From assembly GCA_019058295.1 (NCBI GenBank), contig JAHPZI010000020.1:1-42621 (forward strand): DNA of 42,621 nt, in the 5' to 3' direction. Under the pieces are notes generated by a model. The model was given only the letters and a program-made list of their open reading frames with translations. It made no database searches and had not been told where the DNA came from. Below, piece after piece: positions 1-7,830 of this stretch. Every line of letters starts with the position of its first letter. Position 1 is the first letter of the stretch. The translations under genes and the position numbers were made by a program. This DNA is from Promethearchaeota archaeon (GTDB lineage: Archaea; Asgardarchaeota; Lokiarchaeia; Sigyniarchaeales; SOKP01).

Positions 1-1053
1 CTCATAAATTCCATACCCATAATCATCACCTTGATAGAGATCCCATCCCGTTGCAACTATTATCGTTCCAACCTCTAATTCAACGATTTCGTCCTGCATA
101 CTGAAATCTATTGCTTCTGTTTCGCAAGCATCTTTACATGCAAAACATTCTACGCAAGAATTTCTGACTATATCAGAAACCGCAGGAACCGCCTGAGCAA
201 AAGCTATGTCAATTACTTTCCTTGCAGATAAGTTTTCGTCAAAATAATTAGGTACGTATATTGGACACACTTCTGTACATGCTCCACACCCCGTACACAA
301 CTCCTCATTGACGAATCGACTTTTTCGCTTAACTTTTACGTTAAAATTTCCAATATATCCATCCACTTCTATAACTTCACTATAAGATAAAATATCAATA
401 TTAGGATGGCGTTCTGTCTCTAACATTTTTGGTCCCAATATTCATATTGAACAATCATCTGTTGGGAATGTCCTATCAAGCTGAGACATTCTTCCTCCGG
501 TTGTGGTATTTTTTTCAATTAAATATACCTTATACCCTGCATCTCCTAGATCAATAGCTGCGGATAAACCAGCAATACCCCCACCAATTACTAAGGCAAC
601 TGGTTTTACTGGTACAACTTTTATTGGAATATCTTCTAATAATCTAGCCCTTGAAACTCCCGCCTTGATTAACTCAATTGCTTTATTATCTGCTTTATCT
701 CTTATTTCTGGATCTTGATGTACATAACTGCAATGTTCTCTAATATTTACAAATTCTAAATATCTCTGTGGCAGACCTGCTTCCTTCAAAATTGCATGAA
801 AGACAGGTTGGTGGGTTAATGGAGTGCATGCAACGACTACTATTCGATTAAAGTCCCTTTCCTTGATCTGTTCTTTAATATATTCAGAACCTCCTGAGGT
901 ACACATATTTAGATATTCATAGGCCCAGACATTTTCTAATTTATCGATTTCTCGTACTATTTTTGGAACATCTAGAATTCCAGCAATGTTAATTCCTCAG
1001 CGGCACACGAAAACACCAATTTTCAAATCTTCTATGGTCTGATTTTCAGACAA
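1..1053 (-). CDS. hdrA: Heterodisulfide reductase subunit A (FAD/[4Fe-4S]), predicted selenoprotein with two in-frame UGA; 3' end lies outside the window
   Basis: Reading the minus strand from TTG 1051-1053 gives ...KIGVFVCR-TGA(997-999)-GINIAG..., then the tracked 442..906 segment (VVAACTP, NIREHCS, Rossmann VIGGGIAG), then ...TFPTDDCSI-TGA(442-444)-ILGPKM...CTGCGACTEVCP...CVECFACKDAC...GTIIVATG. The frame is continuous to position 1. Confidence 0.95.
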
Positions 1054-1229
1054 TTTTTTCACTTTTTTTAGTTATAACCTTATATTATTATTCTAAAATT
1101 ATATTGATGATTATGTTAATAGTTCTATCATTATAAAAATAATTATTATAAATAATTGCTATTTAAATAAATTCTAATCTTAGAAGACGAGATACTTAAA
1201 ATAAAAAAAAATAAAATAAAAAAGATTAA

Positions 1230-1772
1230 TTATTTGCTTTCATAATCTTCAATTATTTCGCCAAATAACCGCTTTACTGCATCGATACGACTCTCTTCAC
1301 CAATTTGCTCTACGTCTTTGAGCGAAATAGCTTCCTTAGGGCAAACAGCAATACATTGAGGTTCTCTTTTTCCAACTTCTGGATCAATAAATTCCTCTTT
1401 CATAGTCTCGCATAGATCGCAGATTAGTGCTTTCTGGGTCTCCATATGAAACGAGATTACTCCAAAATCGCAGCCACGGATGCAAAATCCACATCCATTG
1501 CATTTCTCATCATCAATCAGTATGGAACCTGTGTCAGGATCTTTTTCAAGAGCATGTTCGGGGCAAGCTCTAATACATGGAGCATCTTCACATTTTTGGC
1601 ATGCGAGAGCAATATTAAAGACTGGTTCTATTCGAACTCTATGAATTCGGGCGTTAATTGGTTGAAATTCTCCGTCGTGTACAAATGAACAAACGCTCTC
1701 ACAGGTTTCACAACCTGTACAGAGGTTCGGATCAACAATGATAAAGCTATGCACCTTTTTCTTAGTCGCCAT
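1230..1772 (-). CDS. Multi-[4Fe-4S] electron-transfer subunit (DmsB/HydN-like), partner of AOR
   Basis: Motifs CTGCETCESVC, CQKCEDAPCIRACP, CNGCGFCIRGC and CDLC...CIAVCP. The AOR stop directly abuts this ATG (TAAATG on the minus strand). Confidence 0.9.
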   Translation of the reverse strand: MATKKKVHSFIIVDPNLCTGCETCESVCSFVHDGEFQPINARIHRVRIEPVFNIALACQKCEDAPCIRACPEHALEKDPDTGSILIDDEKCNGCGFCIRGCDFGVISFHMETQKALICDLCETMKEEFIDPEVGKREPQCIAVCPKEAISLKDVEQIGEESRIDAVKRLFGEIIEDYESK

Positions 1773-3695
1773 TTATTTCTTTCCTCCGCTCTTCTCTAAT
1801 TTCCCAATAACAAAATCTAATCCTAATTTCTTTAAAGTTTCATCAGTAGGAATCCCTGTATTTTCGTCCCATTCTCTTGCTTTATAATAGCCTGATAACA
1901 ATGTCTGATATCCTTTTTCCTCTAAAGTAACTCCCTTTGTAGGACCTCTAGTGTGAGCTTGCTTGAAAAACCTTTCTGGTGGATGATCATCATCTCTTGT
2001 CCAGCCTGCTCTTACGTTGAAACATTTTGAAAGAGTCACTATTGCATCTCCCCTCAATAGGAGAGTTTCATCAGTATGAGGAATACCTGTAACAAGTTCG
2101 AATACTTTAGCCATCTCAGCGTCATTCTCATAAATTCCTCTTGTGAATTTGCAAATAATATAGGAGTCTATTAATGCATATACATCTTCAAGTCCTTTTA
2201 TGGCTTTTCCTCTCTCAACAGGTTTATCATAGCCAAATCTATCAAATGTTCCTTTAGCATCTAATCCATACGCACCATTCCTTAAATGACATGCACCTCG
2301 TATTGAAACACTTTCTCCAACAGCAAACGAAGACATTCCATGGAGGTCAAATGCTGGCAGTTCTAATCCTTTTATTTGCATTGCATAAAAACTTGCGTTC
2401 TTTCTACCCTTTTCTTCAAGCCTTCTTCCAGCTTCTCTAGAACCATCACCAAAGATCTCACCAGGAAAACCTTTCCCTAGAATCATTTCTTCATTAAATC
2501 GAACTAGATTTTTAGTTGAGCCAAATGGTAATTCATATCCTAAATCGTCTTTTGTAATTAACCCATCTTCATATAGATCACATGCCATCGCACATGTAAC
2601 TCCTCCCGAAATAGCATCAATTCCTAGATCATCGCATTGAGTAATACATTTAAAAATAGTTGGCCAATCAGCATTACCACACGCTGTACCATATCCATAT
2701 ACTAATTCAACGTCAACACTTGCTACAAGATTTGGATAATCAGGATGGGTTTTAGGGATTCTTGCTAAATGATCACATGCAATTGAACATTGAGAACATG
2801 CGACTTTTTTTACAATCCACTCTTCATTTAAAACTTCTCCATTTACTATACTTTCGCACTTGTCCCAGGTGCCTTCACGCATATTATTTATAGGAAACAT
2901 ACCAAGTTTATTATAACTGAGGATTCCAGCGGGCGTACCTTGATCACGATATTTTGCTGTCGCAGGACCATTGGCAACTTTAATTAGCTTCTTAGCAAGT
3001 TTATAAAATTCTACTGGATGTGCAACTTTGGTTCCTTTTGTACCTCTAAAAGCTATAGCTTTAAGGTTTTTAGAACCCATTACAGCACCCATTCCAGTTC
3101 TTCCAGCTTGACGATTTCTATCGTTTGTAATGCAAGCCATTTTAGACATTCTTTCACCTGCTGGGCCAATACTTAATACAGCAAGTCTTTGATCTTGAAA
3201 TTCCTCTCTTATTATTTCTTCTGTTTCCCAGCATCCTTTTCCCCATACTATATCTTTACAAGGTACTAAATATCTGTCATCATCATCAACCACGAGATAA
3301 ACGGGTTCAGGAGCCTTTCCTTTAAACACAATCATATTAATTCCTGCTCTTCTTGCTTGAGCACCAACACTTCCTGAGGAGATAGCCATCCCAAACATTC
3401 CAGTTAACGGAGATTTTGCAAATAAACCATATTTAGAGCTTGTTGGTAAGATCGTTGTAGGAAAAGGACCTTGTGCGTAGACAAAAACATTGTCCGGACT
3501 TAATGGGTCAACACCTGGTTTTAATTCGTCCCATAAAACCTTAGCAGCAAAACCATATCCCCCAATCCAGTCTCGACAGAACTCTTTGGAGAGAGTTGAT
3601 TCTTTAATTTCTCCACTCGTTAAGTCAACATCTAATCTAACCTGAGAATAACCGTGTATATCGTCTGGAATTGTTACATCTTTGGACTTACTCAT
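1773..3695 (-). CDS. aor: Tungsten-dependent aldehyde:ferredoxin oxidoreductase family protein
   Basis: AKSPLTG, AGRTGMGAVMGSKNLKAIA, CSQCSIAC, DDLGIDAIS, RGACHL and ICKF motifs. ATG at 3693-3695 is preferred; the tracked GTG at 3704 looks like part of the RBS. Confidence 0.93.
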   Translation of the reverse strand: MSKSKDVTIPDDIHGYSQVRLDVDLTSGEIKESTLSKEFCRDWIGGYGFAAKVLWDELKPGVDPLSPDNVFVYAQGPFPTTILPTSSKYGLFAKSPLTGMFGMAISSGSVGAQARRAGINMIVFKGKAPEPVYLVVDDDDRYLVPCKDIVWGKGCWETEEIIREEFQDQRLAVLSIGPAGERMSKMACITNDRNRQAGRTGMGAVMGSKNLKAIAFRGTKGTKVAHPVEFYKLAKKLIKVANGPATAKYRDQGTPAGILSYNKLGMFPINNMREGTWDKCESIVNGEVLNEEWIVKKVACSQCSIACDHLARIPKTHPDYPNLVASVDVELVYGYGTACGNADWPTIFKCITQCDDLGIDAISGGVTCAMACDLYEDGLITKDDLGYELPFGSTKNLVRFNEEMILGKGFPGEIFGDGSREAGRRLEEKGRKNASFYAMQIKGLELPAFDLHGMSSFAVGESVSIRGACHLRNGAYGLDAKGTFDRFGYDKPVERGKAIKGLEDVYALIDSYIICKFTRGIYENDAEMAKVFELVTGIPHTDETLLLRGDAIVTLSKCFNVRAGWTRDDDHPPERFFKQAHTRGPTKGVTLEEKGYQTLLSGYYKAREWDENTGIPTDETLKKLGLDFVIGKLEKSGGKK

Positions 3696-3875
3696 GATTT
3701 TCACATTTTCTAAAAATTTTTAAAATTATATTTATAATAGAATTGTATTTCTTTTAATGTTGTTTGTTAATTTGAATAATGTATATTTTTATCAATATTT
3801 AATCATATGTTAAGATCTAATTTAAAATTCCCATTTTCCATAATTTCAAAAAGAACAAAATCTAATAAAAAAAAA

Positions 3876-7314: not shown

Positions 7315-7830
7315 TTAGCGATTCATCATTTTTCGAACTAATTGAATAAATGCATCTTCAACATTTTCCCCTGTCTTTGCAGACGTCTCAATAAATATTG
7401 AATTTTCTTTTTCTGCAAATTCTTGGGCCTCGCTTTTTTCTATAATCTCACCAATATCTTCAACTAAGTCGGCTTTATTTCCAATTAATACAAAAGGAAT
7501 ATTATTTCCAGCAAATTGGCGAAATTCTTCAAGCCATTTTCTAATCTCTTTATAAGTTTGATTTCGTGTGAGGTCAAAAACTAAGAGAGCTCCCATTGCC
7601 CCATCGTAAAAACGATTACGCATGAATTTAAATCGTTCTTGGCCACCAATATCCCATATCGTAAGCCTTGCGACACCTTGATCCAATTCCACGGTTTTTG
7701 CTAAAAAATCTACTCCAATAGTCAGTTCATATTTTTCAGAGAATTTATTCTGCACGAATCTATGAAGTAAACTTGTCTTACCGACAGCTGCAGCACCTAT
7801 TAGGACTAATTTAAAGACATATTCCGCCAT
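7315..7830 (-). CDS. Rab-like small GTPase (Ras superfamily; Asgard eukaryotic signature protein)
   Basis: G1 GAAAVGKTS, LTIGVDF, G3 WDIGGQERF, G4 GNKAD and G5 ETSAK. No C-terminal Cys prenylation motif. Confidence 0.93.
   Translation of the reverse strand: MAEYVFKLVLIGAAAVGKTSLLHRFVQNKFSEKYELTIGVDFLAKTVELDQGVARLTIWDIGGQERFKFMRNRFYDGAMGALLVFDLTRNQTYKEIRKWLEEFRQFAGNNIPFVLIGNKADLVEDIGEIIEKSEAQEFAEKENSIFIETSAKTGENVEDAFIQLVRKMMNR

Follow-up and report, generated by a model that had tools for sequence, protein, structure and literature searches.

Two in-frame UGA codons predicted to encode selenocysteine in a Lokiarchaeial hdrA gene, with a single SECIS element behind vhuD in its orthologues

Is an hdrA reading frame that runs through two UGA codons a gene in use, and if so, how are the two codons read? 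This question is raised by the start of the DNA stretch analysed here (the window: 42,621 nt, C20:1-42621, from a Promethearchaeota archaeon genome). The minus strand of window positions 1-1053 translates into the first 351 codons of a Loki-type hdrA gene. Two TGA codons occur in one and the same frame, 185 codons apart, the first in the context GVFVCR-U-GINIAG and the second in the context TFPTDDCSI-U-ILGPKM (Table 1). A preliminary description of this DNA had reported these positions and the shared frame, as we find them, and had predicted an otherwise intact gene for a double selenoprotein. From TTG 1053 to base 1 we indeed counted no stops or frameshifts other than the two TGA codons. The UGAs are codons 19 and 204 if counted from TTG 1053 (22 and 207 from GTG 1062). 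The frame leaves the window at base 1, which is the end of the contig; hence, the truncation of the gene stems from the assembly, not from decay. In the reading that we consider very probable, hdrA is intact, both UGAs are decoded as selenocysteine (Sec) and the mRNA, covering hdrA and vhuD, carries one distal SECIS element.

Table 1. Coordinates of the hdrA locus and its upstream neighbours (window positions; -, minus strand)
Feature	Position	Strand	Basis
hdrA, 5' part, 351 codons	1..1053	-	Translation; match to 5odc_A, E 4e-114
Likely hdrA start, TTG	1053-1051	-	Aligns with ATG of several orthologues
hdrA start in published catalogue, GTG	1062-1060	-	Entry begins VKKLSEN
UGA no. 1, predicted Sec19, C-R-U-G-I-N-I, N-terminal domain	997..999	-	Aligns with Cys13 of M. 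thermolithotrophicus HdrA
UGA no. 2, predicted Sec204, D-C-S-I-U-I-L (CxxU motif)	442..444	-	Aligns with Cys197
N-terminal alpha/beta domain, ~residues 1-140	634..1053	-	AF2 model, Foldseek, invariant Cys columns
FAD-binding Rossmann motif V-I-G-G-G-I-A-G, thioredoxin-reductase-like domain	472..591	-	Pfam: NAD_binding_8 155-194, Pyr_redox_2, FAD_oxidored
Inserted ferredoxin domain, two Cys motifs for [4Fe-4S] clusters	109..327	-	Pfam: Fer4_7, Fer4_10, Fer4_9 at 243-315
AT-rich 176-nt spacer 5' of hdrA, presumed promoter region	1054..1229		Sequence
AOR Fe-S subunit, 180 aa	1230-1772	-	Upstream neighbour of hdrA, same strand
Tungsten-type aldehyde:ferredoxin oxidoreductase (AOR), 643 aa	1773-3704	-	Best PDB matches 8c0z, 1aor, E 1e-99

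HdrA is the electron-bifurcating subunit A, with FAD and Fe-S centers, of the heterodisulfide-reductase family. Residues 8-351 of the window product align with residues 2-347 of the HdrA chain 5odc_A at 45-50% identity. In this alignment U19 falls on Cys13 of the motif C-H-C-G-V-N-I, and U204 falls on Cys197 of the motif D-C-S-I-C-I-L; both UGAs are thus located at conserved Cys positions of HdrA, as the preliminary description held. The N-terminal Cys set of HdrA (C-x-C-G-x-N-I, M-C and A-C-T/S-P) is present, with Sec predicted in place of the second Cys of C-x-C. The FAD domain has the GxGxxG and D-C-x-x-C/U-I-L motifs (Pfam matches at 153-203) and is followed by the inserted ferredoxin domain with its two [4Fe-4S] Cys motifs. 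In a 96%-identical orthologue (L034) HdrA has a full length of 653 aa, with a Fer4 match at 583-641. An AF2 model that spans the first 135 residues (pLDDT 84.6) superposes at TM 0.84-0.88 on the corresponding N-terminal domain in the HdrA structures 5odc, 8rvu and 7bkb in a Foldseek search. We make no claim that this domain is a paralogue of VhuD/MvhD with equivalent Sec sites: a BLASTP comparison gave E 0.059 with three Cys/Sec sites aligned, the hhalign probability was 3% and Foldseek listed flavodoxin-like folds and the N-terminal domains of HdrA proteins, and nothing else.

A pseudogene in decay, or a gene that yields a truncated product, would leave a similar trace: the UGAs would terminate translation and the frame downstream would be a relic. 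Both codons are stops in translation table 11, gene callers yield pieces and the assembly lacks part of the gene. Automatic annotation does split the gene, as had been anticipated; the 154-aa piece between the UGAs is a separate NCBI protein, and other pipelines report either hdrA fragments (175 and 444 aa) or a 656-aa product with read-through. The 351 codons, however, have no other lesion, and the TGA codons are retained in related genomes. The search covered this genome and 40 relatives, and HdrA matches were found in 40 of the 41. All 19 closest orthologues from outside this genome (69-96% identical) have at least two TGA codons in this stretch, with open frames of 401-688 codons. Sixteen of them, from 16 genomes and spanning the same range of identity, entered the alignment, and TGA occupies both columns in every one, so that all 17 aligned members of the orthogroup, this sequence included, agree. 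Orthologues carry complete hdrA frames of 643-688 codons. The same two columns hold TGA in three HdrA paralogues of this genome (contigs C7, C18 and C1; ~50% identical), while the remaining HdrA copies of the genome that cover these columns have Cys there. Such retention in 16 of 16 orthologues and three paralogues goes well beyond chance. The alignment with homologues that had been suggested as a check therefore came out in favor of UGA conservation.

Comparison with six orthologues gave pN/pS of 0.10-0.21 for the segment that separates the UGAs and 0.07-0.17 for the codons beyond the second one (0.07-0.21 overall past the UGAs), with synonymous sites near saturation in the five more distant orthologue pairs (pS 0.66-0.86 per site). 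Low values on the 3' side of each UGA indicate that the frame is under purifying selection and is translated through both codons. Conservation and selection data taken together effectively refute the pseudogene explanation, and we regard it as extremely unlikely.

The number of TGA codons is not the same in all members of the family. Four orthologues (L035, L037, L045 and L049) have a third TGA at the Cys of A-C-T-P in the N-terminal domain, and one of the four (L045) has a fourth TGA in place of the first Cys in the motif of the inserted ferredoxin domain. Members of one orthogroup thus appear to differ in their number of Sec residues. The paralogue on contig C7 holds five TGA codons.

In a metagenome-assembled genome an error of sequencing or assembly, with TGC or TGT as the true codons, is an a priori possibility, and we found no other argument for it. 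Each TGA is spanned by a public contig with 0 differences (run X1 record 4, positions 182-548; run X2 record 15, positions 674-1190); TGC or TGT was not seen at either site. These two runs are possibly the sample of origin of this genome, so the independence of the TGA calls rests on the orthologues, where TGA is found at the same columns in sixteen other genomes. The chance of an error is, in our judgment, negligible.

If the UGAs are translated, they could be read as a standard amino acid, Cys or Trp, by near-cognate suppression or under a reassigned code. Two observations speak for this possibility: most HdrA proteins have Cys at both sites, and searches of the genome, estimated to be 79% complete, did not find PSTK with either TIGR03574 (no more than 22.9 bits) or PF08433. 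Reassignment, however, is at odds with the genome's use of TGA as a terminator of 231 among 1686 long stop-to-stop frames; the genetic code is therefore not reassigned. The in-frame UGAs of this genome are restricted to HdrA, VhuD, VhuU and SelD, all of them known selenoprotein families and each with a SECIS behind it. The Sec machinery argues against a standard amino acid as well. A tRNA-Sec(UCA) candidate with anticodon loop CUUCAAA was found by Infernal (RF01852) at C30:102616-102699; its score of 44.2 bits is 3 bits below the Rfam gathering score of 47, and ARAGORN made no tRNA-Sec call in the genome. We accepted the candidate because it has the UCA anticodon and adjoins the SepSecS gene, which lies ~220 nt downstream on contig C30 (386 bits). 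An EFSec/SelB-like factor (240 bits) is located ~3 kb away on the same contig, and SelD, itself with one in-frame TGA, is encoded on contig C9. The list of Sec genes that the preliminary description had proposed to look for was thus found except for PSTK. Decoding as Cys or Trp seems to us very unlikely. As to their arrangement, the genes for the EFSec/SelB-like factor, tRNA-Sec(UCA) and SepSecS form a cluster within 6 kb (C30:98363-104080).

Where, then, is the recoding signal? In the orthologues the stop codon of hdrA is TAA or TAG, and the next gene is vhuD with two Sec codons. In L034, HdrA ends in TAA and, after a 13-nt gap, is followed by a 152-aa VhuD/MvhD of the FlpD family (Pfam E 2e-41) with two TGA codons. 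One eukaryote-like SECIS is found 13 nt past the VhuD stop, ~2.4 kb from the first UGA. The SECIS core motif was located by pattern in eight of the 14 orthologues with vhuD. In seven of these eight, AUGA lies 12-19 nt past the VhuD stop, and the distance from the first hdrA UGA is 2333-2400 nt. In the most distant orthologue (L049) AUGA overlaps the last codons of VhuD; this sequence was excluded from the SECIS fold. The fold derived from 13 orthologues runs from AUGA through a helix of 8 bp and an A-rich loop to GA, and six of the eight pairs of the upper helix show compensatory changes; described more broadly, the element has an AUGA...GA core, an upper helix of 8-9 bp and an A-rich loop of 11 nt. 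An Rfam search of an orthologue locus gave no SECIS family match at E <= 1. The 3' eukaryote-like SECIS of Lokiarchaeia, which the preliminary description had expected behind the gene, is therefore present in the orthologues, at a position after vhuD. The two recoding events per mRNA of the same description become four by orthology, because the SECIS lies behind a vhuD gene with two further UGAs.

The orthogroup SECIS has additional structure. In L034 (1559-1668, minus strand) and in 12 orthologous loci a side hairpin, AAUGG-5 nt-CCAUU, is conserved 3' of the GA core. Together with a 5-bp basal helix, AUGUG/CACAU, it gives the element a three-way-junction-like shape. The sequence of the side hairpin hardly varies, and a single compensatory change was seen in it.

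SECIS elements of the same kind occur in the genome of the window behind the paralogous operons, vhuU and selD. A pattern scan of the genome gave 134 matches, mostly noise at 31% GC, and matches were retained only where they stood behind UGA-containing genes. Two hairpins that resemble the lokiSECIS were observed behind small open reading frames. One (contig C14, ~94042, minus strand) follows a 75-aa TGA-containing ORF with an N-terminal membrane helix and the sequence G-G-G-G-U-G-C; the other (contig C8, ~18037, minus strand) follows a small ORF that ends in P-D-P-G-C-U-U, with two adjacent TGA codons. These ORFs fit no listed selenoprotein family.

The distance of ~2.4 kb, with another cistron in between, could be taken as an argument for a local signal, i.e. 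a bacterial-type hairpin or Sec-redefinition element beside each UGA in place of a distal 3' SECIS. The 70 nt after each hdrA UGA, however, fold no better than shuffled sequences (z -0.6 and -1.3), and a covarying AUGA/GA SECIS follows vhuD in every orthologue examined. Local elements are, in our view, highly improbable. A bicistronic hdrA-vhuD mRNA with one distal SECIS is the mechanism best supported by the SECIS and operon of the orthologues and by the absence of local folds. In this mechanism, the Sec system of the lineage (tRNA-Sec(UCA), SepSecS, SelD and an EFSec-type factor) would decode both hdrA UGAs as selenocysteine, the recoding signal being placed neither beside the UGAs nor within hdrA. 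Judging by orthology, hdrA would be co-transcribed with the downstream vhuD/mvhD gene bearing two more UGAs, and the single eukaryote-like SECIS past the vhuD stop would serve all four UGAs, up to ~2.4 kb away. One SECIS apparently serving four UGAs in two cistrons over ~2.4 kb bears on the origin of the eukaryotic SECIS mechanism. The proposal that both hdrA UGAs are read as Sec thus agrees with UGA conservation, purifying selection, the Sec machinery and the SECIS of the orthologues. In the literature examined, protein-level or 75Se proof was found for none of the Asgard selenoproteins.

The 3' half of this hdrA gene, its vhuD and its SECIS were not found in the 30 contigs of the genome by tblastn with C-terminal halves of the paralogues, or by blastn and tblastn with the 3' region of an orthologue and VhuD. 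As this 3' half is unassembled, the SECIS is demonstrated in orthologues and paralogues only; the present copy would have the same 3' end, vhuD and SECIS included, if it follows its orthologues. A sediment-metagenome contig of 9757 bases (run X2 record 11) overlaps window positions 1-537 with 4 differences and extends 9.2 kb beyond the contig end, so the missing half of hdrA exists in public data. A 485-nt contig from a sediment metatranscriptome (run X17 record 9) covers positions 508-992 with 27 differences (~94% match) and contains neither UGA. Being derived from a relative and lacking both UGA positions, it is no evidence for expression of this gene; it gives a weak hint that the hdrA orthogroup is transcribed.

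Genes adjacent to hdrA bear on the role of the protein. The two upstream genes on the same strand code for an AOR and its Fe-S subunit (Table 1), and five or more orthologous loci preserve their synteny with hdrA. On the other side, a 379-aa FrhB/FdhB-like Fe-S protein is encoded 3' of the SECIS in both loci examined (L050:5348-6487 and L051:5466-6605). The conserved order, read from window 1230-3704, L023-L030 and these two loci, is AOR, Fe-S subunit, hdrA (two Sec), vhuD (two Sec), SECIS and the FrhB/FdhB-like protein. HdrA works with HdrBC, which includes the CCG-domain catalytic subunit, in heterodisulfide reduction. Neither hdrBC nor any gene with a CCG domain (HdrB/D-like) adjoins hdrA here; the genome has 48 places with a CCG-domain match, ~two per gene. 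The neighborhood of AOR, Fe-S subunit, HdrA, VhuD and FrhB-like protein may constitute an aldehyde-linked bifurcating module. We treat the link of this HdrA to aldehyde oxidation as a lead and not as a result, albeit a testable one on the role of this non-methanogenic HdrA.

We also considered a likeness of the set of AOR, Fe-S subunit, HdrA(Sec) and VhuD(Sec) to BamBCEF, the class II benzoyl-CoA reductase. This candidate was rejected: the AOR is nearest to canonical AORs (8c0z and 1aor), while BamB (4z3w) matched with only E 5e-46 and over a part of the AOR protein. Farther along the window, a Ras-family small GTPase is encoded at 7315-7830 on the minus strand (Pfam Ras, E 2e-56); as a eukaryote-signature protein typical of Asgard archaea, it fits the Lokiarchaeial origin of the DNA.

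What the two Sec residues would do can be approached through HdrA structures. The preliminary description had suggested that both are Fe-S ligands. For the Cys197 site such a role is documented: in the crystal structure Cys197 of one HdrA is described as ligating the N-terminal [4Fe-4S] cluster of its partner (PMC9012536). A 2026 cryo-EM study of M. maripaludis, on the other hand, found Sec197 bonded to a Cys, a Cys-Sec bridge located between FAD and that cluster, and proposed a thiol-selenol relay (PMC13518236). Sec204 would accordingly be either a cross-subunit ligand of the N-terminal cluster or a member of a CxxU redox pair, and its motif C-S-I-U, a CxxU pair, is compatible with a ligand or a relay role. 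At the N-terminal site, Sec19 would be a ligand of the same N-terminal cluster, in the low-potential branch. In the AF2 model C17, U19, C51 and C76 lie where strands 1-3 reach their C-terminal ends. Folds of this type usually hold a cofactor along this edge, and the predicted strand-end positions make a ligand role of this site plausible. In the literature examined (PMC9012536 and PMC13518236 included) we found the ligands of the N-terminal cluster nowhere listed residue by residue, nor Cys13 named as one of them. Mariotti et al. (2016), in a paper that predates the structure of 2017, stated that these sites are not cluster ligands (PMC4989117).

These considerations can be joined in a single proposal. 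Sec19 and the Sec204 of the partner subunit would bind one inter-subunit [4Fe-4S] cluster (HA3/A3) of the low-potential branch, giving it two selenolate ligands, and the AOR/Fe-S/HdrA/VhuD/FrhB-like cluster would encode an undescribed aldehyde-linked flavin-based bifurcating complex of Lokiarchaeia and not a heterodisulfide reductase. We think this proposal unlikely.

Several known systems can be compared with the present locus. The two-Sec HdrA of Lokiarchaeia is already known. Mariotti et al. (2016, Mol Biol Evol 33:2441, PMC4989117) described Lokiarchaeota multi-Sec HdrA-VhuD pairs that share one lokiSECIS: vhuD is always directly 3', the single lokiSECIS comes after vhuD and the stop codon of hdrA is UAA or UAG. 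Our orthogroup shares with the pairs the Sec at the canonical ~200 site with further Sec at conserved Cys positions, as well as (in the orthologues) vhuD directly 3' on the same strand, one eukaryote-like SECIS after vhuD and an HdrA stop of TAA or TAG. We see no essential difference, apart from the truncation of the present copy by the contig end; the side hairpin and the basal helix of the orthogroup SECIS are not described in the parts of that paper examined.

Huang et al. (ISME J 18:wrae111, PMC11227280) catalogued 1439 Asgard selenoproteins in 2024. In their HdrA file (Sec given as X) X-G-I-N-I occurs 192 times and X-G-V-N-I 148 times, which amounts to ~340 occurrences of the motif C-x-Sec-G-[IV]-N-I. 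The N-terminal Sec site, whose earlier report in Asgards the preliminary description could not verify, is thus on record, this very protein included. In supplementary files 49/77/84, compared by eye in the printed text, the entry Lokiarchaeia_GCA_019058295_U_4 corresponds to the window product from VKKLSEN to GYGIYE at the contig end, with Sec at both sites. That entry starts at GTG 1062, while the ATG starts of orthologues favor TTG 1053. Another entry, GCA_019058395_U_5, is a full-length twin paired with a two-Sec FrhD/VhuD entry (PMC11227280). Given this listing and the class described in 2016, the N-terminal site, the double-Sec state and the gene itself are all published. Our analysis adds no new biology on this point; independent tests (conservation, selection, machinery and SECIS covariation) confirm the published reading for this copy.

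Outside the Asgard archaea, HdrA of Methanococcales and Methanopyrus is similar in having Sec at the Cys197-equivalent site (D-C-x-x-U-I-L) and a vhuD partner with two Sec. The Methanococcales entries show DDCAM-X-ILAPKM, which bears out the preliminary statement that the second site is Sec in that order. The N-terminal site in these proteins, however, is Cys (VCYCG or VCHCG), whereas here Sec is predicted, and their Sec-HdrA genes use an archaeal-type SECIS, not a eukaryote-like one, according to the literature (PMC4989117 included). HdrA of the MvhAGD-HdrABC complex of M. thermolithotrophicus (5ODC; cryo-EM structures 8RVU and 7BKB) has the same domain order as the protein studied here. The HdrA proteins of these three structures are all-Cys, come from methanogens and have HdrBC encoded alongside; the Lokiarchaeial hdrA has no adjacent hdrBC and stands next to the genes of an AOR and its Fe-S subunit instead.
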